Notes under the pieces: model-generated
The model's input: only the letters and a program-made list of their open reading frames with translations
Told to the model about the DNA's origin: nothing
Databases searched by the model: none
Made by a program: the position numbers and the translations under genes
Shown: one piece after another, positions 5,888 through 34,965 of the stretch
Layout of the letters: every line of letters begins with the position of its first letter
How positions within the stretch are numbered: the first letter of the stretch is position 1
Assembly (NCBI GenBank): GCA_902386025.1
Contig: CABMHR010000001.1
Location: 99,741-163,740, forward strand
From: an uncultured archaeon
Lineage (GTDB): Archaea > Nanobdellota > Nanobdellia > Pacearchaeales > GW2011-AR1
Reading direction: 5' to 3'
DNA length: 64,000 nt

Positions 5888-7507
5888 ATGGAAATTTTAT
5901 TGATAATGCCCAAATATTTCTGTTCAAGCAAAGACACAAAGCCCAATTATGATTACCTCTTTCCGATTGGGCTTCCTTATATTTATTCTGTGATAAAATC
6001 TCACGGCTATAATATTGAAGCATATAATCTAAATCATGAAGAAGGTAAAATAAGTGAATTAATAAAGAAAAAATTAGATAATAAAAAATATGATTTAGTC
6101 TGCACTGGGGGGATGGCAATAGATTATTCCGTAATAGAAAAAATAATAAATACTTGCAAATCTCATAAAAGCAACCCTAAAGTGATTTTAGGTGGCCCAG
6201 TCCTAACGAGCAATAGGGAAGTTATATCAGAAAATCTTAATTTTGATATAGGGGTAATAGGGGAAGGAGAAGTAACCATAATAGAAATCTTGAACCATCT
6301 GAAGAATGATAAGAACATGGGAGACATAGATGGGATTTGTTATAAGGATAAAGATAAAAAAATAATCTTTACTCCTTCCAGAAAACAAATAGAGGATTTA
6401 GATTCCATCCCTTTCCCCGATTATGAAGCATTTGGATATGAAAAACTTCTAGGCAATACAGACCCTTTATTAACTTGTTTTGGATTGTTGGATTACCCCC
6501 GAGTTTATCCTCTTTTGGGAAGCAGAGGATGTCCATTTCAATGCACTTTTTGTCATCATTCGATTGGCTCCAAATATAGAAAAAGATCAATAAAAAATAT
6601 CACAGAGGAGATGGAATTTGCTATCAAAAAATATGATATAAATTTTTTTAATTTAAATGATGATTTATTCTCTGTTGATAAAAGTAGGCTTTATGAATTT
6701 TGCGATGAGATGCAAAGATTAGAAAAAAAATATTCAAAAAAGCTATTTTGGTGGTGTTCATTATGGGTGGGGGCAATCGATGAAAAAATGCTGAATACTC
6801 TCAAAGAATCTGGATGCCTTTATGTTTCATTTGGTTTTGAAAGTTATAGCAAGACTGTTCTTAAAAGTATGAAAAAACCTATCACTCCCGAACAGATAGA
6901 CGCTGCCATAAAATTGTGCATGAAAACAAAAATGCCGATAGTTGGAAATTTTATATTTGGAGACATTGCTGAAACCAAAGAAACTGCAAGAGAGACATTG
7001 GACTATTGGAAGAAAAATTGTAGGGGGCAAGTAAAATTATTTTTTATACACCCTTACCCTGGGAGCGAGATTTATAAAAGCTGTTTAGACAGAGGGATAA
7101 TAAAAGATGAATTAAATTTCATAAAAAATGAGATGCATCACACTTATATTAGGAATATGACTCTTAATATGGAAGATAGAGATTTTGAAGAATTAAAAAA
7201 AGAGATATATCATTTAACAAAAACAGATATCCCTTACAAAGTTCCATTTAAGATTAAGCATGTCGGAAAAGAAAAATATGAATTATCTTTAAAATGTCAT
7301 TTTTGCAAAGAGAAAATAACTCTTAAAAATTGCATTATTAAGAATAAAGGATATTTCAGTTCATTTTTAATATGTAGAAATTGCCAAATGAAATATAATG
7401 TATGCAGTAAATTATATAAATTTACTATGGACCATTATTTAAAATTGGATTTTTTCAGGAAGAATTATCTAATTCTTAGGGATAAGTTTTTGAGCAAGAG
7501 GCTTTAA
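5888..7507 (+). CDS. B12-binding-domain radical SAM enzyme (class B)
   Basis: N-terminal Rossmann-like cobalamin-domain pattern (LLIMPKY...GLPYIYSVIKSHGYNIEAYNL...LVCTGG) and GSRGCPFQCTFCHH (CX3CX2C). Confidence 0.8.
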   Translation: MEILLIMPKYFCSSKDTKPNYDYLFPIGLPYIYSVIKSHGYNIEAYNLNHEEGKISELIKKKLDNKKYDLVCTGGMAIDYSVIEKIINTCKSHKSNPKVILGGPVLTSNREVISENLNFDIGVIGEGEVTIIEILNHLKNDKNMGDIDGICYKDKDKKIIFTPSRKQIEDLDSIPFPDYEAFGYEKLLGNTDPLLTCFGLLDYPRVYPLLGSRGCPFQCTFCHHSIGSKYRKRSIKNITEEMEFAIKKYDINFFNLNDDLFSVDKSRLYEFCDEMQRLEKKYSKKLFWWCSLWVGAIDEKMLNTLKESGCLYVSFGFESYSKTVLKSMKKPITPEQIDAAIKLCMKTKMPIVGNFIFGDIAETKETARETLDYWKKNCRGQVKLFFIHPYPGSEIYKSCLDRGIIKDELNFIKNEMHHTYIRNMTLNMEDRDFEELKKEIYHLTKTDIPYKVPFKIKHVGKEKYELSLKCHFCKEKITLKNCIIKNKGYFSSFLICRNCQMKYNVCSKLYKFTMDHYLKLDFFRKNYLILRDKFLSKRL

Positions 7508-7508
7508 T

Positions 7509-8324
7509 TCATTTCTGTTTGGAAAAGAATCCTTTCCAAAATCCAAATATATTAACAAAGTGAATTGCTGGTGCCGCGGTTATCATATATATCGGGAATA
7601 AATAAAAATATTTTTTAAAAGGAAACCCGTAAATAATAAGAAGAAACCCAAAAAAAGGAAGTGCTCGAAGAAGTCTTATTCCAAGATTATCCAATCTTGT
7701 TTTATGCATTCTTACCATTTTTCCATTCCCTTCAGAATAACTAAATAATCGTTTTAGGGTATAACTAACATTTTTTTGATTATGCAGGTGAAACACCCCC
7801 ACTCCTGCATTAACAATTCTCCCTCTTTTTCTAAGCTTTATGGACAAATCTGCATCTGGAGCGAATTTTACTGCTTCGTTGATCATTCCAACTTCAATTA
7901 AATCTTTTTTTCTGTAAGCACACGCTCGTATGTCTGTGGGGGGAGCTCGCATATTCATTGTGGGGTCTTCTCTTTCTCTTTCTTTTATGATCAACAATCT
8001 CAATAAAAGAGAGTATTTTTTCCAGCGTTCTTCTGATAACAAAAGATATGAACCTGTTGCAGCAATATTTTTATCTTCTAATGGTTTAATCAATTTTTCA
8101 AGCCAAATCTCTTTTTCTGGAACACAGTCTTGTTCCAAAATTACAATAATTTCTCCCTTGGATTTTTTTATCCCAGCATTCATAGATTCCACTTCAGGCA
8201 GGTTCCAACTCTCAATAATCTCTGCATTTATTGTTTGCTTCTTTAACATTTCCTTTAATTTTTCAAAAACCTCTCTTTCAGGTTTATACAAGGGGATAAT
8301 AATAGAAACTTTTGGTATTTTCAT
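7509..8324 (-). CDS. Family 2 glycosyltransferase with C-terminal membrane segment
   Basis: VSIIIPLYKPE start, ILEQDCVP (DxD-like), hydrophobic C-terminus. Confidence 0.75.
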   Translation of the reverse strand: MKIPKVSIIIPLYKPEREVFEKLKEMLKKQTINAEIIESWNLPEVESMNAGIKKSKGEIIVILEQDCVPEKEIWLEKLIKPLEDKNIAATGSYLLLSEERWKKYSLLLRLLIIKEREREDPTMNMRAPPTDIRACAYRKKDLIEVGMINEAVKFAPDADLSIKLRKRGRIVNAGVGVFHLHNQKNVSYTLKRLFSYSEGNGKMVRMHKTRLDNLGIRLLRALPFFGFLLIIYGFPFKKYFYLFPIYMITAAPAIHFVNIFGFWKGFFSKQK

Positions 8325-8345
8325 GTTATTTGTTATTATTAAACT

Positions 8346-8810
8346 TTAATTATCTTTTACGGTCCAAACATCTCCAAAATAAAAAGGGTCTCTCCTTTGA
8401 GTAGCTTTCTCTTGAGGGTTATATTCCTTATCAATCAAATGAAGAATAACTGCCTCTTTATTCGCTAAAGGAGTGTATCCATGCCATATCTTTGGAGAAG
8501 TCTTAACAAGTATTGGATTTCTCTCTCCAATTATAAAAGTCTTAACTTCTTTTGTTCCATCTTCTTTTTCTTTTATAGACACGTACTTAATATTCCCTTT
8601 TATACAGGTGGTGCATTCTGTTTGAGTTTCATTAAGATATAATCCTTTTATTATTCCCGGATATAAAACTGAAACAAGGGCTTGTCCAACATTTCCATTA
8701 AAAATATTATTATCTTTCCTTATCGAGATTAAATATCCTTGATCATTTGCAAAAGTGTCTAATTTTTTTACGTTTTCTTCTGCAGATTTGTCTGTATTTG
8801 AATCTTCCAT
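8346..8810 (-). CDS. RmlC-like cupin (dTDP-4-dehydrorhamnose 3,5-epimerase-related / sugar ketoisomerase)
   Basis: GIIKGLYL ... KIWHGYTPLANKEAVILHLIDKEYNPQ ... RRDPF follows the RmlC pattern (RGLH ... HGF ... Y.p..e ... dp). The first motif is degenerate. Confidence 0.5.
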   Translation of the reverse strand: MEDSNTDKSAEENVKKLDTFANDQGYLISIRKDNNIFNGNVGQALVSVLYPGIIKGLYLNETQTECTTCIKGNIKYVSIKEKEDGTKEVKTFIIGERNPILVKTSPKIWHGYTPLANKEAVILHLIDKEYNPQEKATQRRDPFYFGDVWTVKDN

Positions 8811-8957
8811 AATTTCAATTCAGGAATGTTCTTTAAATAAATTATTGATTTAGAATATATAACCCTAACCAATCCCCAATAAAAATTTTTTAGAAAGGAA
8901 AAGATTCTTGAATAATATTCAAAGCGTAGTTAAAATCTATACATCCTATTAATAACA

Positions 8958-8967
8958 TTTTTAAATA
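8958..8967 (+). promoter_or_regulatory. TATA-box-like element (TTTTTAAATA) about 25 nt upstream of the ATG at 8987
   Basis: Same position relative to the ATG as the other candidate boxes; suggests a leaderless or short-leader transcript. Confidence 0.35.
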
Positions 8968-8986
8968 AAGTTTAGCACCATTTTTA

Positions 8987-9973
8987 ATGGTAAGAACAAC
9001 TTCTTGGATTGATGTTTATCCCATAAACGAATCTGGTTTAGTCAGATATAATAAATTAGAAATTGTTAATTCTGGGGCAAGAGTTCAATTAAGCAAAGAA
9101 CTTTCTGATTATTGCACTGAGCAGTGGACTCCTAAAGCAGCAAAAGGCTGGAAAAGTTCTTGGTTGGCATTTGCTGAAAATCTTAAGTATTCATCTGACG
9201 GAGAACAGACTTATGTGACTATTAAACTAGGAGCAATGCCTTTCTTTATTTGTGATGGGATTGTTAAATCAATTGAAGAACAGAAAGATTTTGCTCCCAA
9301 ACAGGGATATGCCAATAGTGTGTCTATTGGTTTTCCAACTGCAACAAAAGATGGGAAAATAATGCTTCAGAGAAGAGCTCCAGATGTTCATTGTCCTAAT
9401 ATACTAATTCATGAACCTTGTGGTTATATGGCTTCAATGAATTTTGCTCCCAGAGCAGAATGTGACTTGGGAAAATATGCAGAGGATAGCAGATTGTTTG
9501 ATTTGGTGGGGCAACTGGATTATAGAAAAGAAGAAATAGCAAAAACCTTTAGCATTCCTTCTGAATTAGTTTCTTACGAACTAAGACAGGACTTTCTTGC
9601 AGCGGGATGGATAACCAAGGAAATGTATTTTTCAACAACAGGAAGAATTGATGTTAATTCAATAGAATTGAAAATTCCAGAGAATCAGGAAATATTCTTT
9701 GTTCCATTTGAACATTTGAAAGATTTAATCTACAATCAAGGAAAACTTTCTCAAATAAATGCAAATGGCTATCGTCCTTTAGATGCAAGAGAAATCCCAT
9801 TAATTGATGAAACGCTAATTGGGCTTGTTTGGGGATATGAAAAATTAACCGGAGAGAAATTGGATGTTGAAGACACAATTGCAAGATTAAACCACGACGG
9901 AATGAACATTAAAGTTTATCCTGCTTCTTCAGATGGTTTGAGTAATGAATATCAGTTTCCAACTAGGTTTTAA
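8987..9973 (+). CDS. Hypothetical protein (328 aa, no family recognised)
   Basis: Long clean ORF with its own TATA-like box. Amino-acid usage is richer in W/C/Q/A and poorer in K than its neighbours (by eye). Confidence 0.5.
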   Translation: MVRTTSWIDVYPINESGLVRYNKLEIVNSGARVQLSKELSDYCTEQWTPKAAKGWKSSWLAFAENLKYSSDGEQTYVTIKLGAMPFFICDGIVKSIEEQKDFAPKQGYANSVSIGFPTATKDGKIMLQRRAPDVHCPNILIHEPCGYMASMNFAPRAECDLGKYAEDSRLFDLVGQLDYRKEEIAKTFSIPSELVSYELRQDFLAAGWITKEMYFSTTGRIDVNSIELKIPENQEIFFVPFEHLKDLIYNQGKLSQINANGYRPLDAREIPLIDETLIGLVWGYEKLTGEKLDVEDTIARLNHDGMNIKVYPASSDGLSNEYQFPTRF

Positions 9974-9980: not shown

Positions 9981-12593
9981 TTAATATCTTATGTTAGTTG
10001 TCTGAGTTATCTTATTAAACACTTCTTCACCATTCTCCTTTCCCAATCTATCTATCACACAATCATGATATCTTGCCATTGATAACATCTTGCTTGTTTC
10101 AGAATTAAAATCTGTTTCTAATGCTGCCATTAGCCACTTTCTGTCAATTGGGTTTTCAGTCAAATAATTTTTTCCTTCATTTAATAGAGCTTTCATCCAC
10201 CTTTCATCAATTTCTCCCTTAACATACAATGTCCCGAATTTACAGATATTTCTTAATTTTTTCTCTATTTCTTCTGGAAATCGCAATCCCCCAATCCCCG
10301 TATTTGTGTCCCCAGAACAACTATCATTAATTGTAAATCCTCTTTCTCTCGCTATTTTGTCTATATGAGTATGGGGGTAAATTTGAAGAGGATAGAGGGA
10401 AATAATACTCCCCTTGCCAATTCTTTTCATTCCTTCTAATGTATCTAATGCATCTTCAACAGGATCGGATATTGGAAGTCCTACGATTGCCTGCAGATTA
10501 ACCCTATAGCCAAATGAAACCAGTCGGTCATACGCTTTTTTTATTTGTTCTTCATTATCCCATTGTCTGTTAAACATTTTCAATGATTCTGGACGAATTG
10601 CTTGAACTCCCAGCCCAACACAATTCACGATACCTCTTAATTTCTTTAATATCACGTCTGATGCTTTCAAAACACTGACAGAAGTTGTTGAGACATACAT
10701 TGGAAGATTTATCTCTTTTTTCCAAGCATCAATAAATTCAGAGAGCCATTCTTCTGCATTTCTTCCAGCAAATAAATCATCATCCACCCACTCAATGTCA
10801 TCTGTAGGATACTTTTTTATTACCTTTGCTTCTTCTATAACGGTTTTAATATCTCTTCTTCCTAAGAAATAATTTATCTGTGCTTCATTTCCAAACAATT
10901 CTCTTCTGTGCAGACTTGAAGAACTGCAATAAGTGCAGGCATATGGGCAACCTAACATAGAGAGAATAATCTTTCTGTAGCGGTATCCCATTCTTGGGAT
11001 ATCTTCATAACATTTTTCTCTTGCAGGCATAGGCAAATCATTTGGATTTCCAGGAATTGTTGTGATTATTCCTCTCTCACCTCCGAGGAATCTTTCAACA
11101 GAACCATTTACCGGGCCTCTGACAACAACATCAATATTTGGCAATTCTGAAATCTCTGGAGAAGCAGTTGCATGATGCCCCCCAAAAACCGAAATTACCT
11201 GGGGATTTTTTTCCTTAATCTTATTTAAAATATCATATGCCTGTGGGAAAAAAGTAGTCATTGGGGAAAACAAAACATAATTTGGACACCATTCCAGAAT
11301 ATGTTCAATTACTTTATCATCTCCTTCTGCATCAAAGAATTTTATTTCTTGATTTAATCTCTGCAACTCTCCTCCAACAAAATACAGCCCGTATGATTCT
11401 TCATTACCAAAACATATCAGTGCATGCTTCATTTTCTCCTCTCTCTTTTGGTAGAGATTTTTCTGTTTATAAAATTCTTTTATTTTTTCACAGATATATT
11501 TAACATCTTTTTTGTTAACTGCAGGATTAATTGGCAAATAAAGATATTTTTCATGAATATAATCCATATTTGGGCAGGAGCATTTAAATTTTTTAAATAC
11601 TTCAAATAAATCATTACGCAATTGCACCATATTCACATCAATGCCATTATTCAAAAGAAATTCTGCTAATTCATCCCTATATTCTGATAAAATTCCAAAT
11701 AACCAATAAGAACCGCCTGCTATTGGAATTACTTCTTTTGGTAGTTCTTTTAGATATTCTAATGCTAAAGATTTTCTATATTCAATAATCAAATCTAAAT
11801 GGGGAAGTGATGCTAATCCAAAGCAAGCATCAATGTCTGTGGGTTGGTATTTATAGCCTGCTTCTTCAATATCAAAAGTCATTTCCCTGCGTTCCCAAGC
11901 CTGATAATTTTTTCTGGCTTTCAGCTCTCTATCAATGCCAAACCATCTTAACAATTTAGCTCTATCGTATTCTTCTTTATTTTTTAAAACTAATATCCCC
12001 CCATCTCCAGTGGTTATATGTTTGATTGCTTGAAGAGAATAACAAATATAATCCCCCTCCAAATTTTTTGGTGCATGGTGTTGCGAAGCATCAACAATAA
12101 CGGGGATATTCTTTTCCCTAGCTAATTTAAATATTTCTGGGTTTGCTTCTATTCCTCCCAAATGAACAACGACAATTGCTTTTGTATTTTCAGTTATTTT
12201 TTTTCTTACATCAATTGGGTCAATATTCAAAGTGTCTCTTTCTATATCTGCAAAAACAATTTTTACATTACGCCTCATAAGACCCATTTGTCCTGCAGTG
12301 CAGTCTAAAACAGGAACTATAACTTCATCATCTTTTTTAAGATTCAATAAATGATATGCTAGTTCAAGTGCAGAAGTCCCTGAATTCAGGAATAAAACAT
12401 GCTTATAACCAAATTTTTTGCCAAATTCTTTTTCAAATTTATCTACTTTCGGCCCTTGACCGAGCCATCTTCCTTCAAGTGTCTCTTCTATTTCTTTTAA
12501 TATTTCTTGTTTTGGAACAAATGGCCAAAAAAGAGGAATCTTTAATTTTTTTGTATCTTGAAAGATTTCCTTTAAAGTTTTATCCTCATCCAT
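9981..12593 (-). CDS. Fusion protein: DegT/DnrJ/EryC1-type PLP sugar aminotransferase/dehydratase (N) + B12-binding radical SAM domain (C)
   Basis: N-terminal half: GQGPKVDKFEKEF..., SGTSALELA, YSLQAIKHITTGDGG (PLP-Lys motif). C-terminal half starts near ...EEKMKHALICFGNEESYG with a cobalamin-domain pattern and LGCPYACTYCSSS (CX3CX2C). One uninterrupted 870-aa frame. Confidence 0.75.
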   Translation of the reverse strand: MDEDKTLKEIFQDTKKLKIPLFWPFVPKQEILKEIEETLEGRWLGQGPKVDKFEKEFGKKFGYKHVLFLNSGTSALELAYHLLNLKKDDEVIVPVLDCTAGQMGLMRRNVKIVFADIERDTLNIDPIDVRKKITENTKAIVVVHLGGIEANPEIFKLAREKNIPVIVDASQHHAPKNLEGDYICYSLQAIKHITTGDGGILVLKNKEEYDRAKLLRWFGIDRELKARKNYQAWERREMTFDIEEAGYKYQPTDIDACFGLASLPHLDLIIEYRKSLALEYLKELPKEVIPIAGGSYWLFGILSEYRDELAEFLLNNGIDVNMVQLRNDLFEVFKKFKCSCPNMDYIHEKYLYLPINPAVNKKDVKYICEKIKEFYKQKNLYQKREEKMKHALICFGNEESYGLYFVGGELQRLNQEIKFFDAEGDDKVIEHILEWCPNYVLFSPMTTFFPQAYDILNKIKEKNPQVISVFGGHHATASPEISELPNIDVVVRGPVNGSVERFLGGERGIITTIPGNPNDLPMPAREKCYEDIPRMGYRYRKIILSMLGCPYACTYCSSSSLHRRELFGNEAQINYFLGRRDIKTVIEEAKVIKKYPTDDIEWVDDDLFAGRNAEEWLSEFIDAWKKEINLPMYVSTTSVSVLKASDVILKKLRGIVNCVGLGVQAIRPESLKMFNRQWDNEEQIKKAYDRLVSFGYRVNLQAIVGLPISDPVEDALDTLEGMKRIGKGSIISLYPLQIYPHTHIDKIARERGFTINDSCSGDTNTGIGGLRFPEEIEKKLRNICKFGTLYVKGEIDERWMKALLNEGKNYLTENPIDRKWLMAALETDFNSETSKMLSMARYHDCVIDRLGKENGEEVFNKITQTTNIRY

Positions 12594-12667: not shown

Positions 12668-13555
12668 CTAGATATTATCTTTTTTTATAAGATAATCAAG
12701 TACTTCAGATTGTTTTTTTGTTATCTGTGAAAGCTTTTCTATAATCGCTTGTTTATTATCACTTTTTGAAGGGAATTTAAATGTTTCAGAAAAATCATCG
12801 GTATCGCTCCAAAAACTTTCTTCGGTTATTTCTCTTCCCTTTGCTAAATTGCTTGCTCGGTTAAGTGATTCAAAAGTTCCTGCATCTGACCAAAATCCCT
12901 TGAGTATATCATAATAGCATTTTCCAGATTTTACATAAACATCTATAGCATCAGTAATTTCCAATTCTCCCCGTGCAGAACGCTTTAATGTTCTTATTAC
13001 ATCAAAGATTTTTGAATCAAATATGCATAATCCTGTAGAAGCCAAATTGCTCTTTGGATTTTCAGGTTTTTCTTCCACATAGATTACCTTGCTTCCCTCT
13101 ATAACTGCAATTCCAAATCTTTTGGCTGCTTTTAATCCCACTTCTTTTAAAAAAAGTTTGCATCCTCCTGTTTCTTTCATTTTATTTTCAAAATCTTTTA
13201 TCTGCTGGGAAAAATTTTCTTCAAATATATTATCCCCTAATATTTCTACTATTGGTTCTTTATTTGCAAAATCTTCTGCTAATGCTAATGCTTCAGCAAT
13301 ACCCCCAGAACCTTCTTGAACTTTGTAGGTTAGATTAACTCCAAAATCAGCACCAGAGCCAAGGAGGTTTGTAAAATCCCCAACATGTTCTCTCCCAGAG
13401 ATAATCATAATATCTTTAATTCCTGCATCAATCAGGGTAAAAAGAGGGTAATAAATCATTGGCTTATTGTAAACAGGAAGTAAATGTTTGTTTGTAACTT
13501 TCGTGCAAGGCATTAATCGTGAACCAGTCCCTCCTGCTAAGATTACCCCTTTCAT
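12668..13555 (-). CDS. rmlA: Glucose-1-phosphate thymidylyltransferase-like NDP-sugar pyrophosphorylase (long form)
   Basis: MKGVILAGGTGSRLMPCTKVTNKHLLPVYNKPMIYYPL. Start set to the internal ATG at 13555, which forms an ATGA overlap with the rmlB stop; the track start at 13576 would overlap rmlB by 25 nt. Confidence 0.8.
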   Translation of the reverse strand: MKGVILAGGTGSRLMPCTKVTNKHLLPVYNKPMIYYPLFTLIDAGIKDIMIISGREHVGDFTNLLGSGADFGVNLTYKVQEGSGGIAEALALAEDFANKEPIVEILGDNIFEENFSQQIKDFENKMKETGGCKLFLKEVGLKAAKRFGIAVIEGSKVIYVEEKPENPKSNLASTGLCIFDSKIFDVIRTLKRSARGELEITDAIDVYVKSGKCYYDILKGFWSDAGTFESLNRASNLAKGREITEESFWSDTDDFSETFKFPSKSDNKQAIIEKLSQITKKQSEVLDYLIKKDNI

Positions 13556-22220: not shown

Positions 22221-22221
22221 C

Positions 22222-24164: not shown

Positions 24165-25076
24165 ATGATATCCATTATTGTAACTGCCTATGAAGATCCC
24201 AACTCTACAAAAGAAGCTATCTGGAGATTACTAAACCAAGATGATTTTTATGAGAAATTTGAATTAATCGCAGCATGCCCAGATAAACCAACAAAAAAGA
24301 TTATTATGGATTATAAAAAAAAATTCCCTAAATTAATAAAATATGTTAAACAAGATGATCCTGACAAAAATAAACTAATGAATAAGATATTAAGATTAAC
24401 ACGGGGGGGGATTATAGTCTGGACAGACGGGAATAAGTTTGTAGATAAAAATGCTATTCAATTGATTATCAAGGAATTTAAAGACCCTTATGTAGGTTGT
24501 GCGGGAGGAAGGCCTATCCCCCAAAATAAAAGTGATAATCTTTTTGGATTTTGGGCACATACCCTTACAAATGCTGCTCATAGATTAAGAGAAAAAAGAT
24601 TTTCTCACGGAAAATTTGTAGAACAATGTGCAAACCTCCTTGCAATGAGAACGGGGATTATTGAAGAAATACCAAAAAATGTTGCAGAAGATTCTATTAT
24701 TCCTTATTTAATTTCTAAGAAGGGATATAAAAATGTATATGTTGGAGACGCAAAAGTTTATGTGATGTATCCAAGAAATTTCAGAGATTGGGTGAAACAG
24801 AAAGTTCGTTCTGCAAAATCTCATGAAGCAATGAATAAACACATTTCTTCTAGAAAGATTAAACAAAAAACTTTATTGAATGAGTTTCTCTATGGATTTT
24901 TATTTGTATTATCTTCCCCCAAAACTCCCAGAGAATTATTCTGGACTATTTTGCTTTATCCAGCAAGGCTATATGTATGGGCATTAACTTTCTACGAGAT
25001 AAAAATTAAAAAAAGTCCCTATGTTGCAGTATGGTCTCGTTCTGAGTCAACTAAAACATTAGATTATAAAAAATGA
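24165..25076 (+). CDS. Family 2 glycosyltransferase (paralogue of 17450..18322)
   Basis: MISIIVTAYEDPNST..., WTDGNKF, GGRPIP. Contains a G8 tract at 24403-24410. Confidence 0.7.
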   Translation: MISIIVTAYEDPNSTKEAIWRLLNQDDFYEKFELIAACPDKPTKKIIMDYKKKFPKLIKYVKQDDPDKNKLMNKILRLTRGGIIVWTDGNKFVDKNAIQLIIKEFKDPYVGCAGGRPIPQNKSDNLFGFWAHTLTNAAHRLREKRFSHGKFVEQCANLLAMRTGIIEEIPKNVAEDSIIPYLISKKGYKNVYVGDAKVYVMYPRNFRDWVKQKVRSAKSHEAMNKHISSRKIKQKTLLNEFLYGFLFVLSSPKTPRELFWTILLYPARLYVWALTFYEIKIKKSPYVAVWSRSESTKTLDYKK

Positions 25077-27852: not shown

Positions 27853-28539
27853 ATGAAATTTGAATCAAATTTAGATAAAGGAATTGATTATAATAATGAA
27901 TATCATCTGGCAAAATTTGGAAAATGGCTGAAACATAGGCAAATATATGAATTAAAGGGAAAGGTTGCTAAAAAAAATATTTTTTCTTATTCTTTTGACG
28001 AAAATTCAAGAGTTTTGGAAATTGGCTGTGGCATAGGGCAGATAACCGCTTGGGTTAAGAATAAACATGGATTTGATATAAATAAAGAGTTATATCCCCC
28101 CTTGAAAAAAGAGGGATTTGTGATGCATGATTCTGTTAAAGAGATTCCAAATAATTATTTTGATGAACTTGTAATGTCTATGGTATTAGAACATATTCCA
28201 GAACCGATAAATTTTATTAATTCTCTTAAGGTTAAACTAAAAGAAAACGGAAAAATAAGACTGGCATTGCCTCGTGCATATTATCATAAAATGAAAGATA
28301 TGAATAAATCAGCAGATGGGCATTATTACTGCTGGGGATTCCCAGACATCAATTATCTTCTTAATAGGTGTGGTTTTGAAGTGTTAATCAATAAAAAGTT
28401 TTTTAGGAGGGGGATTGACAGGCTTTTTTTCATTTCAAAGATAAGTTTTCCGCTTTATATGATGATGATACAATTTCTCGGATTTCTGAAGAATGATTTT
28501 GATATAATCATTATTGCTAAAAAAAATAAACAAGTTTAA
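27853..28539 (+). CDS. Class I SAM-dependent methyltransferase
   Basis: VLEIGCGIGQ (motif I), MSMVLEHIPEP. Confidence 0.7.
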   Translation: MKFESNLDKGIDYNNEYHLAKFGKWLKHRQIYELKGKVAKKNIFSYSFDENSRVLEIGCGIGQITAWVKNKHGFDINKELYPPLKKEGFVMHDSVKEIPNNYFDELVMSMVLEHIPEPINFINSLKVKLKENGKIRLALPRAYYHKMKDMNKSADGHYYCWGFPDINYLLNRCGFEVLINKKFFRRGIDRLFFISKISFPLYMMMIQFLGFLKNDFDIIIIAKKNKQV

Positions 28540-29069
28540 ACAGTTTGCTTTGTTTCAAAAGCAAATATCTTTGTAACGCTGAAGAAATTTATTTTCCTCT
28601 TCATTTCAAAGTTCTCTTTTAATATTTTTAGAATTTCATCATAAGAAGTTATATGCTCTTTTGGAACTTCTGTCTTGCCTACAAACTTCCTCATTTTTCT
28701 TGAAATAAAATTTCCTGTGGGTATAGAGACAATAATTTCAAAATTATCATTCATCTTCTTGAAATCTCCAATTATTTTTTTTATTTCGGGAGCAGGGATG
28801 TGTTCAAGGACATCAAGGCAGAATATCTTTGTTGGTTTTACTTTCCTGTAATCTTTTACAAATGTTTTTTCTGGATTTATGTCATATCCTATAATATAAA
28901 ATTTTCTTAATTTATTTTCAAGCCATCCTGCCCCGCATCCAAAATCAAGAATTACATCCTCTTTTTTAAGATGAGCAAGCTTTACTGCAGCATTTACTTT
29001 CTGCCTGAAATATGTCTTTGTCAGCAGATTCTTGCTTTCATAAGTGTTTTCAAGAAGATTATTTTCCAT
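28536..29069 (-). CDS. Class I SAM-dependent methyltransferase
   Basis: ILDFGCGAGW (motif I), CLDVLEHIP. Confidence 0.65.
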   Translation of the reverse strand: MENNLLENTYESKNLLTKTYFRQKVNAAVKLAHLKKEDVILDFGCGAGWLENKLRKFYIIGYDINPEKTFVKDYRKVKPTKIFCLDVLEHIPAPEIKKIIGDFKKMNDNFEIIVSIPTGNFISRKMRKFVGKTEVPKEHITSYDEILKILKENFEMKRKINFFSVTKIFAFETKQTV

Positions 29070-29119
29070 TATGAAAATTCTCCTGAATTTTTATTTGTGC
29101 TGAACTTCTGTTCTGTCAT
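29067..29119 (-). promoter_or_regulatory. Hairpin + TAATG-coupled mini-ORF cassette, copy 1 (upstream of methyltransferase)
   Basis: The coding strand reads ATGACAGAACAGAAGTTCAGCACAAATAAAAATTCAGGAGAATTTTCATAATG. The mini-ORF MTEQKFSTNKNSGEFS (29119..29069) ends in a TAA that shares a base with the methyltransferase ATG. Hairpin at 29074-29091 (AAAATTC/GAATTTT stem). 38 nt are identical to 45817-45854. Confidence 0.5.
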
Positions 29120-29960
29120 TTTTTAGCTTTTCCCTGAATATTTTATTTAATTCAATAACTTTAAGGTTTTTCTTTTTTCCTTCTTCATTAAGAATATAAA
29201 TTCCATTCATTTCCCTGCATTTTGGATTATATCCATGCATAGCTTTGACAGGAATTCTTCCCTGCCAGTAATTTGGCAGTATTAAAACACTAGGATTTGC
29301 AAGAAAAATATAATCTCCGTATCTTTTGTCTTTCCAGTCAATCCATTCCCCGTCCTTTGAATTAAAATTTGGCTTCTCCCCCCAGTATCTTGCGAAGGTT
29401 GAATCAATCATGCAATCTTTTGTTTCAGGAACAGATATTATTTTTTTTATGTCTATCATTCCGTGGTCTGAAAGAATTATGTCAAATTTCAGCTTTGAAA
29501 CTCTTCTGTCTATTTCTCTTATTATTTTTTTTGTCTCTTCGCTTTTTGTTCCATATTTATGGGCAATTTTGTCAATTTCTCCTATGTAAAGATATTCTAC
29601 CCCCCTTATCTTCTCAAACGGCTTTCCTATTTCCGTATCAAATTTATAAAGTTTCTTCAGAGGGATATTTCCTGTTCTGAATAATCTTTTTCTTGACAAT
29701 AATCTCTGCAGATTGATAAGAATTTCAACAGGAAGCCTTCCCATCCATTGAACTTTTTTTGTCCATTTCAAGCGGGAATTTTCTTTCTTGTGGAAAAAAG
29801 CAAGCATATCATTTCCTCCGTAAAAAAAAGTTTTCATTCCTCCCTCAAAACCCAGAGGCATTTCAAGCTCCCCCCATTGAAATTTTTTTGTCAGATGGGA
29901 CAAATAAGGGGCATATTCAAGATACTCCGGCTTGAATGAATCAATCATTATAATCTTCAT
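29091..29960 (-). CDS. Alkaline-phosphatase-superfamily enzyme (nucleotide pyrophosphatase/phosphodiesterase- or phosphotransferase-like)
   Basis: N-terminal IIMIDSFKPEYL and later IILSDHGM resemble the metal-ligand motifs of the AP/NPP superfamily. Confidence 0.5.
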   Translation of the reverse strand: MKIIMIDSFKPEYLEYAPYLSHLTKKFQWGELEMPLGFEGGMKTFFYGGNDMLAFFHKKENSRLKWTKKVQWMGRLPVEILINLQRLLSRKRLFRTGNIPLKKLYKFDTEIGKPFEKIRGVEYLYIGEIDKIAHKYGTKSEETKKIIREIDRRVSKLKFDIILSDHGMIDIKKIISVPETKDCMIDSTFARYWGEKPNFNSKDGEWIDWKDKRYGDYIFLANPSVLILPNYWQGRIPVKAMHGYNPKCREMNGIYILNEEGKKKNLKVIELNKIFREKLKNDRTEVQHK

Positions 29961-31351
29961 TTTTTATTCAATCCTAAAAAAGCAATTCCTGCATTTAAGT
30001 ATATTTTAAATTTCTCAACGTCTCTTATGTTTTTTAATGCTTTGATAAATATCTTTGGCCTGAAATAAAATTCTCTGTATGCTTTCTTCTGCATTTCCAT
30101 CAGGGTTTTCTCATCAAGTTCTCCATGATGAAATATCACATTTCCATAGGCAATATAATCTCTGTAATTCTTTGGGTAAATTTCCCCCTCTTTTTTTATT
30201 ATTTTCCAATAATCTGTGTTTGGGAAGGGAATTGTTATATGAAATGTTGCAGTGTCCAAGTCAAGAGTTTTTGCAAAGTTTATTGTATCCTGCATTGTCC
30301 TCTCATTTTCCCCAAGATTTCCAAACATAAACAGCCCTCTTGTTTCAATTCCAGCCTCTCTGCACCAATTTACTGCCTGCCTGACTTTTTGAAGATTTAT
30401 GCTCTTTTTCATTTTATTTAAAATTTCTTCATTTCCGGATTCTATCCCAAGAGAAACCATGTAGCATCCTGCAAGTTTCATTTTTTTCAGCAAATCAGGA
30501 GTTATTCTGTCAACTCTGATTCCATTGGAGCATCTCCAGCTCATTTTTTTGTTTAACCCTTTTTTTATCATCAAATCGCAGAATTCTTCAACCCTTTCAG
30601 AAAGAAGAGTAAAATTATCGTCGACAAAATCCCAATCTCTCGCCCCCCTTCTGTAAATTTCTTCAACTTCTTTGATAATATTTTCTGGGCTTCTAAATCT
30701 GAATTTTCTCCCGTGAACTAAATGATCTGCACAGAAAATGCACTGGTAAGGGCACCCTCTTGAACTCAAAATGTAATCGCTTGGATTTTGTTTTGCTCCT
30801 GCGCTGAAATATTTTTCCATTGGAAGAAGCTCTCTTGCGGGAAGAGGAAGCTCGTCTAATTTATCATTAAGCTCTCTTTCTGAATTATGGATTATTTTTT
30901 TATTCTTTCTGTATGAAAGCCCTTTTATTTTACTCAAGGTTTTTTTCTGCACAAGTTCAAGCATTGCAAATTCCCCCTCTCCCCTTATAAGATAATCAAA
31001 TCTATCAAATTTTTCCAGAGTTTCTTGAGGCATAGAACTTGCGTGAATTCCTCCAATAACAACTTTTATATTCTTTGGACAGAGTTTTGCTATTTCATAA
31101 GCTTCTTCTATCATGCTTGTAGTTGAAGTTATTCCAACCCAATCAGGAGAATATTCTTTTATGCATCTTTCTATTTGAAAATGATTTAGATTATTTGCAT
31201 TTGCTTCCAATATCTTTACTTCAATGTTGTTATTTTTCAAGACTGAAGCAATATAAGCCAGTCCAAGCGGGGGGAAAATAGGTGTTATTTCCTTCTTTTT
31301 TGCATAAGCATAAATCTGCCGATAATTTGGCTGTATAAGCAATACTCTCAT
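29957..31351 (-). CDS. B12-binding-domain radical SAM enzyme
   Basis: MRVLLIQPNY...PPLGLAYIASVLKNNNIEVKILEAN, SSRGCPYQCIFCADH (CX3CX2C). Confidence 0.8.
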   Translation of the reverse strand: MRVLLIQPNYRQIYAYAKKKEITPIFPPLGLAYIASVLKNNNIEVKILEANANNLNHFQIERCIKEYSPDWVGITSTTSMIEEAYEIAKLCPKNIKVVIGGIHASSMPQETLEKFDRFDYLIRGEGEFAMLELVQKKTLSKIKGLSYRKNKKIIHNSERELNDKLDELPLPARELLPMEKYFSAGAKQNPSDYILSSRGCPYQCIFCADHLVHGRKFRFRSPENIIKEVEEIYRRGARDWDFVDDNFTLLSERVEEFCDLMIKKGLNKKMSWRCSNGIRVDRITPDLLKKMKLAGCYMVSLGIESGNEEILNKMKKSINLQKVRQAVNWCREAGIETRGLFMFGNLGENERTMQDTINFAKTLDLDTATFHITIPFPNTDYWKIIKKEGEIYPKNYRDYIAYGNVIFHHGELDEKTLMEMQKKAYREFYFRPKIFIKALKNIRDVEKFKIYLNAGIAFLGLNKK

Positions 31352-31392: not shown

Positions 31393-32529
31393 TTAAACCA
31401 GCTTTTGCAGATAATATATAGAATACAATTTCAAAATCCTGTCCTTTAAAGGTTGGGTATTGCCGGTTAGTTTTTTTAAGTATTTTTCTGCCTCTTTTTT
31501 TTCGTTTAATGAATAAAGAATTAGAGAAATGGCTATAATTATCCCTGCGTCTCTCCAATGCATTAAACTTTTTATTAAAAATTCTTTTTTTCTTAATCCT
31601 TCAGCAAAAAATCTTAGATTTAGATAATACTGGGCTGGAAATAAAAACCTGCTTCCAAGATAATCATCAAAATAATTATAAGGCAGTTTTTTATACGCTT
31701 CTTTGCATAAAGCTTTCCAGTCTTCTGTTCTCTCATTAAGGTCTCTCTGAAGAGCTTTTTTTAATGTCCATTCAACCCATTTTTTTGATTCTTCAAAGAA
31801 AGAATTAACTTTTTCTATTTCATACCCCCCGTATAATTTTGCTTTTGTTGCTTTGCTCACAAGGCTCTTTAGCTCTTTATGAACATCTATTTCCTGAAAT
31901 GCCTTCTCTCTGTCCTGTGCTTTTGAAGAATATTTTCCTTGAAGAATTAGCAGGGCAGAGCATAAATCAATAAACCCCTTGATTGCATAAATAGATTTTA
32001 TCTTCTCTGAATTTCCTTCAGCAATTGCAAAATGATCCATCTTGTTAAAAAGAAGCCGGATAGCATCTGATTTTGATATTTTTACATCTGGTATCTTTTT
32101 GAGGATATCTTTGTCTCCGTAAACAACCAAGCTCGTCTTTAAATCAAAAGTTCTTTGTGTGGGATATAATTTTTGCAGATTTTTGTAAGGAATGCAATGC
32201 ATATCTACGTGAAAGAACTTGTTTTCATCATATGTCTGTTCAAAATTTTCAACAATCTCCAGCCCGCCCCTGCCTATTGCTGCTGAACATTTCTTTCCAA
32301 GTTCTTCTAGAATTTCATTGCTTATTTTTTTCTTGGTTATCAAGTATAAATCATAATCATTTAAGGGGGTTATTTTTCCTTTAATCTTTTTGAAACTTCC
32401 ATTCTCGTGCCCGAATCCCCCAAAAAATACAATTGCTATAGGCTTGACTTCCTTTAATACAAGATTTTTTATTATCTTCAAATCCTGTTCTATCTTTTCA
32501 TCCGCTTGTTTTGATGTTGTGTATTTCAT
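31393..32529 (-). CDS. Hypothetical protein, possible Pol-beta-type nucleotidyltransferase fold + helical domain
   Basis: VFFGGFGHENGS ... NDYDLYLIT ... HVDMH loosely fits a G-[SG] ... DxD ... D/H nucleotidyltransferase pattern. Weak. Confidence 0.45.
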   Translation of the reverse strand: MKYTTSKQADEKIEQDLKIIKNLVLKEVKPIAIVFFGGFGHENGSFKKIKGKITPLNDYDLYLITKKKISNEILEELGKKCSAAIGRGGLEIVENFEQTYDENKFFHVDMHCIPYKNLQKLYPTQRTFDLKTSLVVYGDKDILKKIPDVKISKSDAIRLLFNKMDHFAIAEGNSEKIKSIYAIKGFIDLCSALLILQGKYSSKAQDREKAFQEIDVHKELKSLVSKATKAKLYGGYEIEKVNSFFEESKKWVEWTLKKALQRDLNERTEDWKALCKEAYKKLPYNYFDDYLGSRFLFPAQYYLNLRFFAEGLRKKEFLIKSLMHWRDAGIIIAISLILYSLNEKKEAEKYLKKLTGNTQPLKDRILKLYSIYYLQKLV

Positions 32530-33508
32530 TTTTTTTGTCCAATAAGAGGATTATTATTGCAATTATGCAGGGGATTATATTTGTTATTATTATGCTAAAA
32601 ATGGACATAGAGAAAACCTTTACAGCGCTTACCTCAAGTATTCCAAATAGCCCTATCATTGTCAGTTCTCTTGTTCCAAATCCATTTATTGTGATAGGAA
32701 TTTGTGCAACAAGAGTTGCAACAGGCAGTATCATTAAGAAATAAATGAATTTGACATTTATCCCTAAGGACAATCCAACAAGGTAGATTATAACATAATT
32801 CATAATCCAAGTTATTATATTTATTAAAAATACAAATGATAAAAAAGGAAGAGAAGGGAGGTCTTCATAAAAAGAATTAAATAAAACTCTGCTTTTTTCT
32901 TTTAGCCTGTTTGGGATGAATCTTCTGTAAATAATTCTTAGGAAAAATCTGCTGTTTTCTTTCTTGTAGAAGACAAGAAAAAGGAGAATTATAACTGCAA
33001 AAATACCAATCATTAAATAAAGATATGAATCGGGAATTAATTTTTTATAGCGCAGAAATCCAAATATTGCTACGAGTGCAAACAAAGAGCAGATGTCCAT
33101 AATCTTGTCTATTACAAAATTGCTAAGCCCTTTCCCAGTTTCTGTTCCTTTTCTTTTAAGATAATCTGTTCTTATTATTGTCCCAATCTTTCCGGGGGTT
33201 ACAAAGCCGTAGAAATTGGCTATAAGATTTATTTTAAATGCTTCCCCAAAAGGCACATTTATTTTTTGTTTTCTTGCTATGACAAACCATTTCAGGGTTT
33301 GCAGTATGAAAAAAATAGCTACAAATACAAGAGAAATGGCGATATAATCCCATTTTATGCTGTTAAATTCCTGAAATACTTTTGCAACGTCTAATCTTAC
33401 TAAAAGATAGATGAATAATCCAATTCCTATAAGGGGGAGATATTTTTTGATTGTCGCCCATTTCATAAAAGACAATGATTTTTTCTCAATAAAAACCTTA
33501 TGGAACAA
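32498..33508 (-). CDS. Polytopic membrane protein, flippase-like/UPF0104 (lysyl-PG synthase TM-region-like)
   Basis: About 8 hydrophobic segments; GFVTPGKIGTIIRTDYLKR resembles the conserved P-G-x-G loop of that family. Confidence 0.45.
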   Translation of the reverse strand: MFHKVFIEKKSLSFMKWATIKKYLPLIGIGLFIYLLVRLDVAKVFQEFNSIKWDYIAISLVFVAIFFILQTLKWFVIARKQKINVPFGEAFKINLIANFYGFVTPGKIGTIIRTDYLKRKGTETGKGLSNFVIDKIMDICSLFALVAIFGFLRYKKLIPDSYLYLMIGIFAVIILLFLVFYKKENSRFFLRIIYRRFIPNRLKEKSRVLFNSFYEDLPSLPFLSFVFLINIITWIMNYVIIYLVGLSLGINVKFIYFLMILPVATLVAQIPITINGFGTRELTMIGLFGILEVSAVKVFSMSIFSIIITNIIPCIIAIIILLLDKKNEIHNIKTSG

Positions 33509-33510
33509 TG

Positions 33511-34965
33511 CTATTTCACAAAATCCTTCAAATGTCCGAAAACTGCCTTTATCCCCTTAAAATTGAATTTAAAATCATTCCAGCTTCTTATATTCCTTGC
33601 CCTCTGAAAAATATAGGCGGGGGTTAAAAATATTGTATAAATTCTGCTGCAAATTCCTGCAACATCTCTGGCATCAGAGTTTTCTGTTCTCAGAACAGGC
33701 TCTCTCATATCATATCTTTCATATTCTAACGGATTAAATAAAAACCATTTATTCTCTTTTGCCTCTTTCCATAAAGGAGTTCCAGGATAGGGAACAAGAA
33801 CAGTTGCCTGCAGTAAATCAGCTTTTCCGCTTTGCATTAATTTTTTCGCAAGCTGGAATGTCCTCAATGCATCTTCTTTGGTTTCCCAAGGATATCCCAC
33901 TATCATTGTCAAGTGCACAGTAAGTCCTGCTTTCTTCGCCATTCTGCATCCTTCAAATATATCTTTAATTTTTATCCCCTTGTTTAATCTGTCCAATGTT
34001 TTTTGATTTGCACTTTCAAGTCCAAATTTAAGAAGCCTGAATCCTGCTTTTTTCATTAAATCAAATTCTTCTTGATTCAATGCCCCAAATCTCATATTGC
34101 AGGAATATTTTATCTTCCTGCTGTACCCTCTTTTTATCAATCCTTCACATAAATCTTTCAGCCATTTTCCAGTCATCAGGGTTCCAGAATCATCAAAGAT
34201 TTCTTTTGCATTATATTTCTCTATTAATATTCCAATTTCATTTAAAACATTTTCAACACTTCTGACTCTAAAGCAGGGAAATAAAATTGGCCACGCGCAG
34301 AACTTGCATTTTCCCCACCAGCAGTCTCTTCCAGACATAATATAAAAAAAAGGCTTTCCCTGCAAATTATATTCTTTTTCATAAAGCCCCCATTTTGTCA
34401 GCTCTCTGTCAATAAACGGAAGTTCGTCCAGATTATGCTTGAGGATAATTTTTCCTGAATTGATTATTCTGTCATTTTTTCTGTAATATATTCCCTTGGG
34501 GCAGTTTTTGCTTTTTTTCTTAATCCAGCTGCATAATTCCAGAAGACTAAAATCAAAATCCCCCCCGCACAAGACAAAATCTACTTTTGAATTTTTCATG
34601 CTTTCTTCTGGGAATGAAGTTGTGTGATCTCCCAATAATGCTATTTTCATTCTTGGGAATTTTTCTTTTAATGCATTAATAATCTTCCAATGTTGTTTTA
34701 TCACAGGAGTTTTTGTCTCAAAGGCAAATAAATCTGGATTCTCTTTTTCTATTCTTGATAGAAATTCCTTCCAAGAAAGTTTTTCTGCTATTGCATCAAG
34801 CCAGCATACTTCATAATTATTTTTTTTCAAAAGAGTTGCAGCACTTCCAAGTATAACGGGAAACATATAGCTGGGATTTGAAAACCACTGAAACTGCCTG
34901 TTCTGGCTTAGCAGTGCAACTCCTTTTTTTGAGAATGTTGGGGGATATCCTATAATTATTTTCAT
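33511..34965 (-). CDS. B12-binding-domain radical SAM enzyme with atypical CX4CX2C cluster motif
   Basis: The cobalamin-domain-like N-terminus is followed by SGRDCWWGKCKFCAW (Cys215/220/223; 34297-34323). Confidence 0.7.
   Translation of the reverse strand: MKIIIGYPPTFSKKGVALLSQNRQFQWFSNPSYMFPVILGSAATLLKKNNYEVCWLDAIAEKLSWKEFLSRIEKENPDLFAFETKTPVIKQHWKIINALKEKFPRMKIALLGDHTTSFPEESMKNSKVDFVLCGGDFDFSLLELCSWIKKKSKNCPKGIYYRKNDRIINSGKIILKHNLDELPFIDRELTKWGLYEKEYNLQGKPFFYIMSGRDCWWGKCKFCAWPILFPCFRVRSVENVLNEIGILIEKYNAKEIFDDSGTLMTGKWLKDLCEGLIKRGYSRKIKYSCNMRFGALNQEEFDLMKKAGFRLLKFGLESANQKTLDRLNKGIKIKDIFEGCRMAKKAGLTVHLTMIVGYPWETKEDALRTFQLAKKLMQSGKADLLQATVLVPYPGTPLWKEAKENKWFLFNPLEYERYDMREPVLRTENSDARDVAGICSRIYTIFLTPAYIFQRARNIRSWNDFKFNFKGIKAVFGHLKDFVK

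Follow-up and report, generated by a model that had tools for sequence, protein, structure and literature searches.

The window analysed here is a stretch of 64,000 nucleotides from an uncultured archaeon (contig CABMHR010000001.1, positions 99,741 to 163,740), in which six genes for radical S-adenosylmethionine (radical SAM) proteins are interspersed with genes for glycosyltransferases (GTs), nucleoside diphosphate (NDP)-sugar enzymes and two class-I methyltransferases, an arrangement noticed in a preliminary description and supported by our family searches of the window proteins. Five of the radical SAM proteins, termed R1 to R5, were described as carrying a cobalamin (B12)-binding domain and the sixth, S6, as being of the SPASM type. 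All six are present with Pfam domains above the gathering cut-offs, and no further radical SAM protein was found in the window.

5888..7507, plus strand: R1, class-B-type radical SAM protein of 539 amino acids (Pfam B12-binding and Radical_SAM domains; CPFQCTFC; C-terminal tail with four cysteines)
9981..12593, minus strand: R2, DegT-type sugar aminotransferase (residues 28-371) fused to a class-B-type radical SAM protein (B12 domain 401-500, radical SAM domain 546-715; CPYACTYC)
15829..17361, plus strand: R3, class-B-type radical SAM protein of 510 amino acids (Pfam), starting 2 bp after a GT4 gene
25073..26101, plus strand: S6, radical SAM/SPASM protein (PF04055 54.0 and PF13186 50.1, both above cut-off; CNLKCPLC)
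29957..31351, minus strand: R4, class-B-type radical SAM protein of 464 amino acids (Pfam), overlapping the downstream AlkP-family gene by 4 bp
33511..34965, minus strand: R5, core class-B-type radical SAM protein of 484 amino acids (Pfam; CWWGKCKFC, i.e., Cx4Cx2C)

The PF02310 (B12-binding) scores of the five B12-type proteins were 39.8, 43.8, 51.3, 79.4 and 32.3 against a cut-off of 32.1, the score of R5 (32.3) being borderline. The cluster motif is CxxxCxxC in R1 to R4 and S6, with R5 carrying the variant Cx4Cx2C, and S6 has seven cysteines between residues 266 and 331. The five B12-type members are diverged, as had been suggested: since their pairwise identity is only 22-30%, they represent old paralogues and not recent duplicates. 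Five of the six radical SAM genes adjoin a GT gene.

The view of the region as a glycosylation locus in a reduced-genome archaeon was also borne out. The organism belongs to the Woese-/Pacearchaeota group of the DPANN archaea, its nearest named genomes being metagenome-assembled genomes (MAGs) of Candidatus Woesearchaeota, Nanoarchaeota and Pacearchaeota, and the locus encodes the oligosaccharyltransferase AglB with a WWDYG motif. Archaeal housekeeping genes (SpoIIM-like, aIF-2B family, prefoldin, SecY and a ribosomal protein operon) form the flanks. The overall inventory comprises four GT2s, one GT4, one PMT_2-type GT-C, two class-I methyltransferases, RmlA/RmlB, a cupin and an NDP-heptose-like set of enzymes. 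The features by which an archaeal N-glycosylation locus is recognised, AglB with its WWDxG signature and, next to it, an initiating transferase and a lipid-linked-sugar GT, are all present here. We propose that positions 0.6-39.6 kb make up a super-locus for the cell-surface (N-)glycan of this Woese-/Pacearchaeal DPANN archaeon, and that the six radical SAM proteins of this super-locus would act as sugar-tailoring enzymes in two layers, a conserved AglB core and a variable part; taken as a whole, this explanation has in our judgement about an even chance of being correct.

The Conserved Operon Around AglB and R5

Besides R4, R5 and S6, the conserved part of the locus contains the following genes.

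24165..25076, plus strand: GT2c, glycosyltransferase paired with PMT_2 in relatives
26139..27851, plus strand: PMT_2-type GT-C glycosyltransferase using lipid-linked sugar donors, about 10 transmembrane (TM) segments
27853..28539, plus strand: MT1, class-I SAM methyltransferase (family search)
28536..29069, minus strand: MT2, class-I SAM methyltransferase that closes the core operon (synteny in L014, L016 and L017)
29091..29960, minus strand: AlkP-like, soluble protein of the alkaline-phosphatase superfamily (Phosphodiest), coupled to R4
31393..32529, minus strand: unk378, conserved core protein with a nucleotidyltransferase-like G..G..G / DxD / D signature
32498..33508, minus strand: flippase-like membrane protein (LPG_synthase_TM / TIGR00374), about 8 TM segments
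35001..35783, minus strand: GT2d, Dol-P-sugar-synthase-like GT2 directly upstream of R5
35850..36860, minus strand: AglH-like polyprenyl-phosphate N-acetylhexosamine (HexNAc)-1-phosphate transferase (PF00953), 1 bp downstream of AglB
36862..39633, minus strand: AglB, STT3 oligosaccharyltransferase (PF02516 and PF21436; WWDYG at residue 626)

The core operon has the order AglB > AglH > GT2d > R5 > flippase-like > unk378 > R4 > AlkP-like > MT2, with gaps of -32 to +66 bp (35 and 2 bp from R5 to GT2d and to the flippase-like gene, respectively), and it faces GT2c-(S6)-PMT_2-MT1. This synteny is kept in the relatives L014-L016 and recurs in a rearranged form in L012. The start of S6 overlaps the end of GT2c, while in L014, L017 and L018 GT2c and PMT_2 are directly adjacent without S6 between them.

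For the neighbourhood analysis 80 metagenomic R5 loci were sampled, and co-occurrence was counted in those loci where R5 shares at least 60% identity. R5 was accompanied by AglH in 10/10 loci, by AglB in 9/10, by PMT_2 (within 9 kb) in 10/10, by the flippase-like gene (within 3 kb) in 12/13, by unk378 and the AlkP-like gene in 10/11 each, and by another B12-type radical SAM gene in 8/11. R5 proteins of a remoter clade (about 50-54% identity) occur in GT4/RmlB polysaccharide contexts, with AglB in 1 of 17 loci and a GT2d-like gene beside R5 in 13 of 19. Among distant R5 relatives, the one informative source name was a Deltaproteobacteria MAG. Within 2.5 kb of R5, a GT2d-like gene was present in 11 of the 13 close loci and in the same 13 of 19 distant ones. 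The nearest solved relatives of GT2d are the Dol-P-Man synthase of P. furiosus, ArnC and GtrB, all of them polyprenyl-phosphate glycosyltransferases. Furthermore, at least nine loci (type II loci) show a polysaccharide deacetylase and the GT2 converging on R5.

The other radical SAM gene of the operon occupies a less constant position. R4 orthologues are 84-86% identical in L014 and L016, and the same slot is filled in other relatives by radical SAM proteins 31-33% identical to it. The slot between unk378 and the AlkP-like gene is thus semi-conserved, since its occupants range from 31 to 86% identity to R4, and it tends always to carry a class-B radical SAM gene. The neighbouring unk378 gave no family match, even in a permissive Pfam scan, a profile search of PDB returned noise and a single-sequence model reached a predicted local distance difference test (pLDDT) score of 38. 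Residues G37, G40, G44, D58, D60 and D109 are invariant in 16 orthologues, and by this motif alone unk378 appears to resemble a Pol-beta-type nucleotidyltransferase (perhaps LicD/fukutin-like); together with the adjacent AlkP-like protein it could be involved in the transfer of a phospho-substituent.

Conservation and Structure of R5

The R5 family counts over 100 cluster representatives, all full length, with identities of 72-86%, and those named by source originate from Pace-, Woese- or Nanoarchaeota. Across 120 clusters, 170 of the 484 positions are at least 99% identical, and Cx4Cx2C is kept in 119. In syntenic relatives R5 shares 74-80% and R4 84% identity, as compared with 55-63% for AglB and 61-64% for AglH; the conservation of R5 equals that of SecY and exceeds that of AglB.

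The AlphaFold model of R5 (AF2; pLDDT 85, predicted template modelling score 0.86) consists of a five-stranded Rossmann domain followed by a TIM barrel. A Foldseek search with this model retrieved class-B enzymes, namely TsrM, MgmA, AprD4, OxsB, CysS and TokK, the highest TM-scores (0.71/0.75) being those to AprD4. Residues 19-36 form an invariant loop (LSQNRQFQWFSNP...) after beta-1 of the Rossmann domain, which is the only low-confidence part of the model. It is placed where cobalamin-binding domains touch the lower face of the cofactor, making it a candidate cofactor or substrate loop.

Some R5 orthologues (P0241, P0242, P0243, P0246 and P0247) contain inteins at two different points within the Fe-S cluster-binding loop, namely 'GRD/C...HN/CWW' and 'CWYGKCTF/C...AN/C' (slashes mark the insertion points). 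Apart from the three cluster ligands, two extra cysteines of the radical SAM core (C273 and C289 in R5) are invariant across the R5, R4, R1 and R3 families, and could form an auxiliary site or serve as hydrogen-atom donors.

Radical SAM Density and the Variable Part of the Locus

The density of radical SAM genes had been regarded as exceptional. Against a generic background this holds, as six among about 31 genes correspond to P = 6e-7 to 3e-4 under a background radical SAM frequency of 1-3%. Within the lineage, however, it does not, since relatives are similarly or more dense: L022 and L031 carry five in 21 kb, L098 five in 10 kb and L096 eight in about 19 kb. Because related loci are equally rich, the density is a trait of the lineage. 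With a threshold of 40% identity, the 129 radical SAM open reading frames (ORFs) of all fetched loci form 32 families, and the phenomenon is a lineage-wide one, in which a diversified radical SAM repertoire of surface-glycan loci surrounds one constant member, R5. In L096, a relative carrying an R1 orthologue, radical SAM genes are packed more tightly than in the window: three are B12-type, four SPASM-type and one of another type, neighboured by GT4, GT9, methyltransferases, fragments of an E1-type thiamine pyrophosphate (TPP) enzyme, NUDIX and a Wzx-like flippase.

The variable part of the window consists of R1, R2, R3 and S6 together with the following sugar and acyl modules.

637..5771, mixed strands: acyl carrier protein (ACP)-dependent acyl module (hexapeptide acyltransferase, ACP-like ORF, FkbH, 80-amino-acid ACP, MaoC dehydratase, short-chain dehydrogenase/reductase, E2-type acyltransferase, phosphopantetheinyl transferase)
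7509..9973, mixed strands: GT2a (minus), RmlC/FdtA-like cupin (minus) and unk328 (plus), assigned to the R2 module by family search and synteny
8987..9973, plus strand: unk328, conserved protein adjoining the DegT/R2 module (69% identity in L005, 53% in L006)
12668..14544, minus strand: RmlA-like thymidylyltransferase and dTDP-glucose 4,6-dehydratase feeding the R2 module (RmlB 364.3 bits vs. a cut-off of 365.1)
14673..15827, plus strand: GT4 glycosyltransferase, partner of R3 (family search, synteny)
17450..18322, plus strand: GT2b glycosyltransferase, downstream of R3
18335..24035, minus strand: NDP-heptose-like pathway (RfaE-II-like adenylyltransferase, epimerase, GmhA-like isomerase, two HddA-like kinases, haloacid dehalogenase-type phosphatase, NDP-sugar pyrophosphorylase), all proteins under the equivalog cut-offs

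The R1 family is large, with more than 120 clusters at 48-81% identity in Pace-, Woese- and Nanoarchaeota. Its C-terminal CxxC...CxxC (C470, C473, C496 and C499) is 100% conserved in 120 family clusters and could form a zinc ribbon or an auxiliary Fe-S site. A role of R1 in the FkbH/ACP module was considered and rejected, as the R1 orthologues of three relatives lie in polysaccharide loci rich in radical SAM genes that contain neither FkbH nor ACP. The ACP-dependent module, where the left edge of the window cuts the locus, probably supplies an amino sugar with a glyceryl or hydroxyacyl group. Exact look-ups of the proteins at the two edges of the window, aimed at following the locus further, matched no record.

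In the case of R2, the DegT-radical SAM fusion was found only in three close clusters; in slightly more distant relatives a gap of 1 bp separates the DegT and radical SAM genes, which stand within a conserved RmlB-RmlA-DegT-radical SAM-GT2 series, and the fusion junction preserves the radical SAM protein's own start ('MKHAL[IV]CFGNEE'). Orthologues of GT2a and unk328 adjoin R2 in relatives. No family match was obtained for unk328 even in the permissive Pfam scan, and among the small ORFs that scan gave only a marginal PP-binding match, in the 80-amino-acid ACP. DegT-methyltransferase fusions of other organisms (P0013-P0017) share 64-66% identity with the DegT half of R2; the only one of them named by source, P0014, is from a MAG of the Patescibacteria group. 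This similarity hints at gene exchange between DPANN and candidate phyla radiation (CPR)-type organisms and at interchangeable tailoring domains. Homologues of the DegT half often contain intein domains (PF14890 in P0018-P0028). As for R3, the GT4>R3 pair is kept in L001, L004, L006 and L031 at 51-73% identity.

Classification and Possible Cofactor Use of the B12-Type Proteins

Comparison with NCBIfam placed HpnJ (TIGR03471) first for R1, R4 and R5, the alignments covering the full length, and BchE second for all three. The HpnJ scores were 228.1 for R4, 185.0 for R5, 155.9 for R1 and 61.7 for R3 against a cut-off of 577.6 bits, so that membership failed. The top profile of R3 was the ladderane-lipid radical SAM family followed by MJ_1487, and the latter also led for the radical SAM half of R2. 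No B12-type protein reached the cut-off of a methylase or P-methylase family (PhpK, Sden_1168, HpnR, KedN5, TsrM, MJ0865/QCMT, BzaD); the best scores, all from R4, were 144 of 600 for PhpK, 152 of 575 for Sden_1168, 135 of 360 for QCMT and 109 of 650 for HpnR. Membership in the AprD4 family of radical SAM diol-dehydratases (NF033070, cut-off 500 bits) failed as well (R4 109.6, R1 71.5, R5 42.2, R3 21.9).

Among proteins of solved structure, the best relative of R4 and R5 by sequence is 9CCB (MgmA/QCMT), a cobalamin-dependent glutamine C-methylase, with AprD4 next; the R4 match had an E-value of 6e-25. The PDB sequence search yielded only marginal matches for R3, to TokK and OxsB, and no solved relative at E ≤0.01 for the radical SAM half of R2. 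GenK, GenD1, Fom3 and GrsA/B, of which these libraries contain no sequences or profiles, did not occur among the PDB or NCBIfam matches. The nearest solved relatives of S6 are BtrN, GDGT-MAS and BlsE, all weak, BtrN being the best for its C-terminal domain.

A recent review states that in class-B enzymes no protein residue ligates cobalt, and that AprD4 and ArsL belong to the same sequence space, yet do not bind cobalamin. The canonical DxHxxG cobalamin motif was dropped as a criterion for this reason, and a lack of cobalamin-binding residues, which the preliminary description considered a refutation, cannot serve as one, since this class offers neither a protein ligand to cobalt nor a sequence motif for cobalamin. 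The term B12-type is correct as a description of architecture, implying neither cobalamin use nor methyl transfer. It follows from the HpnJ top profile, the best TM-score of the R5 model, which is that to AprD4, and the failure to reach any methylase or other family cut-off that the proposed C-methylated sugars are unproven. Possible chemistries for the radical SAM proteins include C-methylation, ring contraction, dehydration/deoxygenation and epimerisation. The other suggestion, modification at the lipid carrier, agrees better with the gene context conserved around R5, although it is probably a lipid-linked sugar, and not the lipid itself, that is modified.

A Proposed Model of Radical Sugar Tailoring

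Given the recurrence of a GT2, an optional deacetylase, R5, a flippase-like protein and PMT_2, it appears most likely that R5 transforms a sugar on polyprenyl phosphate. We infer the substrates, the order of steps and the chemistry of the following scheme from the observed domains, motifs, taxonomy, synteny, co-occurrence and conservation and from the predicted fold of R5. GT2d would put a hexose or HexNAc onto polyprenyl phosphate at the cytoplasmic face, and in some relatives a polysaccharide deacetylase would act on this lipid-linked sugar ahead of R5. R5 would then carry out a radical transformation of the sugar, the flippase-like protein would carry the modified lipid-linked sugar over the membrane, and the PMT_2 GT-C would transfer it to glycan or protein outside. 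R4, unk378, the AlkP-like protein and MT2 may provide a second, more variable decoration. In the variable layer, strain-specific sugars would be supplied by a dTDP-6-deoxy-aminohexose route, with the DegT-R2 fusion at its end, by an NDP-heptose-like route and by an acyl group carried on ACP. R1, R2, R3 and S6, each beside a GT, would each probably tailor one residue, R2 at the NDP-sugar stage and R3, S6 and R1 on lipid-linked intermediates.

A stronger version of this model can be put forward tentatively, although we consider it clearly less likely than the general scheme, with something like one chance in four. According to it, R5 with its Cx4Cx2C site defines a new ultra-conserved class-B-type family, and radical remodelling of a dolichol-phosphate-linked sugar is obligatory and lineage-wide in Pace-/Woesearchaeota, the carbocyclic, deoxy or C-branched product being flipped by the UPF0104 protein and installed by the PMT_2 GT-C beside AglB.

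Several observations weigh against sugar tailoring by the six proteins as outlined above. No curated NCBIfam equivalog cut-off was reached by any of the five B12-type proteins, and the functions given for all members are predictions from sequence. Gene adjacency fits tailoring of NDP-sugars and of lipid-linked sugars alike. No TM segment is predicted in GT2d, which therefore may act on a soluble acceptor, the 64-kb window contains no deacetylase, and the flippase-like protein matches the HpnL profile weakly (30.5 bits vs. a cut-off of 195.65). A housekeeping function with no connection to glycans would likewise be compatible with the very high conservation of R5. Finally, a comparative-genomics paper reports that Woesearchaeota rarely encode complete cobalamin synthesis; the cofactor must therefore be scavenged, or else the enzymes do not use cobalamin.

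As an alternative, all five B12-domain proteins could be cobalamin-dependent C-methyltransferases in the manner of GenK, GenD1 and Fom3, acting on a glycan with several C-methylated or branched sugars. All five do combine B12-binding and Radical_SAM domains, most characterised class-B enzymes are methylases according to reviews, the best solved relative of R4 is the C-methylase MgmA/QCMT (6e-25), and the identity of the DegT half of R2 to DegT-methyltransferase fusions (64-66%) suggests that its radical SAM partner could serve as a methylase. However, the scores stayed far from the methylase cut-offs (PhpK 144 vs. 600, HpnR 109 vs. 650), the top profile HpnJ is a putative ring contraction enzyme, R5 carries a non-canonical motif and finds its best TM-score with the cobalamin-free AprD4, cobalamin-free members of this sequence space being noted in review, and complete cobalamin synthesis is rare in Woesearchaeota. 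As sequence alone does not reveal chemistry, we hold methylation by all five to be rather unlikely, though still a serious candidate at roughly a quarter of the probability.

An improbable reading, to which we would give about one chance in eight, is that R5, and perhaps R4, are housekeeping or lipid-tail enzymes (of the GDGT/archaeol kind or with another core function) that are merely syntenic with aglB. It would account for the SecY-like conservation of R5 above that of AglB, for the inteins, which are often seen in essential core proteins, and for the neighbours SecY, prefoldin and aIF-2B on one side; lipid modification is also common among archaeal class-B-like radical SAM enzymes in the literature, and the top profile of R3 is a ladderane-lipid family. 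Yet R5 lies inside an operon, 35 and 2 bp from GT2d and the flippase-like gene, a deacetylase and GT2 converge on it in type II loci, and minimal isoprenoid-precursor capacity has been reported for DPANN of this group. The distant clade, moreover, retains a GT2d-like gene by R5 although AglB and the housekeeping neighbours are gone, and it is this persistence of the GT2-R5 link outside the aglB context that disfavours such a role. Far less probable still, indeed very doubtful, is that some of the radical SAM proteins, S6 especially, are protein or peptide maturases (an anaerobic sulfatase-maturing enzyme, a maturase of ribosomally synthesised and post-translationally modified peptides, or a modifier of S-layer protein). 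SPASM proteins often mature peptides or proteins, metalloenzyme maturases are the best NCBIfam matches of S6 (139 bits vs. a cut-off of 380), and the locus includes an AlkP/sulfatase-superfamily gene. The AlkP-like protein (29091-29960), however, is without the formylglycine motif C/SxPxR, which speaks against this option and led us to reject S6 as a sulfatase maturase; in addition its gene is coupled to R4 and not to S6, the S6 gene is placed between those of GT2c and PMT_2, carbohydrate enzymes (BtrN and BlsE) are among the nearest solved relatives of S6, and no precursor-peptide-like ORF was noticed beside it.

Comparison With Known Systems

The R5 cassette resembles in architecture the bacterial hopanoid set HpnI/HpnK/HpnJ/HpnL, with which it shares a GT2, a deacetylase (here in type II relatives only, the window being without one), a B12-domain radical SAM protein and an LPG_synthase_TM/UPF0104 protein; for HpnJ, a ring contraction of lipid-linked glucosamine has been proposed. 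In contrast to that set, the cassette occurs in an archaeon without hopanoid genes, it is tied to AglB, AglH and a PMT_2 GT-C, R5 has the Cx4Cx2C motif, and the HpnJ scores are 156-228 vs. 577.6 bits. Orthology to HpnIJKL was rejected on these scores and the architectural analogy retained. In archaea, Cds, the calditol synthase of Sulfolobus, has been proposed to ring-contract a lipid-linked hexose. As described, it is likewise a radical SAM enzyme acting on a lipid-linked sugar head group, but Cds homologues are reported mainly from acidophiles, whereas here the host is a DPANN archaeon and the enzymes lie in an AglB-linked operon.

The Arn pathway (ArnC/ArnD/ArnEF/ArnT) builds a monosaccharide on a lipid and modifies it there; the product is flipped, and a GT-C finally transfers the sugar. 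This pathway and the mycobacterial decaprenylphosphoryl arabinose pathway have in common with our model that a polyprenyl-phosphate-linked monosaccharide is modified before GT-C use, and an ArnC-related GT2, an optional deacetylase, a flippase-type protein and a PMT_2-type GT-C recur together in our loci. The likeness to Arn is at family level only, and the modifying enzyme here would be a radical SAM protein.

Radical SAM enzymes acting directly on amino sugars are represented by AprD4, GenK/GenD1 (by description), BtrN and DesI/DesII, which serve antibiotic biosynthesis, unlike the primary surface-glycan biosynthesis envisaged here. The pairing of DegT and radical SAM domains in R2 recalls, as we suppose, DesI and DesII, an aminotransferase followed by a radical deaminase. 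DesII is, however, not a B12-domain protein, and membership of R2 in the DesI-type 4-aminotransferases (TIGR04427) failed, at 82.8 vs. 650 bits.

The Agl pathways of Haloferax, Methanococcus and Sulfolobus share with the locus AglB with WWDYG, an AglH-type transferase, Dol-P-sugar-synthase-like GT2s and methyltransferases. Addition of a sugar by a GT-C at the external face is presumably comparable with that by AglD/AglS in Haloferax. The described Agl pathways differ in having no radical SAM enzyme, and a 2024 review of them does not contain the word 'radical'. In the literature that could be searched, we likewise found no characterised archaeal glycan pathway with radical SAM enzymes, as had been supposed, and no work pairing AglB with radical SAM; a Woesearchaeota comparative-genomics paper mentions neither radical SAM nor glycosylation, and for DPANN or Pacearchaeota with radical SAM only lipid papers were found. 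Thus, radical SAM tailoring of sugars and lipid-linked sugars is already known from aminoglycoside pathways, HpnJ and Cds, while for radical SAM enzymes in archaeal N-glycosylation no description was found.

The locus suggests an unusual radical chemistry of sugars in a central position within archaeal glycosylation, and it provides a compact, testable cassette of GT2d, R5, the flippase-like protein and PMT_2. A lineage of very small genomes holds R5 under stronger constraint than the oligosaccharyltransferase, and at least 32 more radical SAM families have diversified around it. DPANN archaea rely on cell-surface contact with their hosts, and to our knowledge almost nothing is known about their glycans. 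On the stronger version of the model, and if cobalamin is truly used, the 30-plus radical SAM families would oblige these reduced symbionts to obtain cobamides from the host or the community in order to build their cell surface. The locus also raises the question of cobamide dependence in organisms unable to make the cofactor. For radical SAM enzymology, R5 offers a large and well-defined family with a non-canonical Cx4Cx2C site and, probably, a lipid-linked sugar as substrate.

Other Features of the Window

At the right edge of the window (61649-62975), a tRNA-Ser(TGA) is directly followed by a tyrosine-recombinase integrase, and GC content falls to 0.286; the region may be an integrated mobile element. 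Over the minus-strand ribosomal-protein operon (44000-56000) the AT skew is strongly negative (-0.26 to -0.44), probably owing to purine-rich, highly expressed coding strands.

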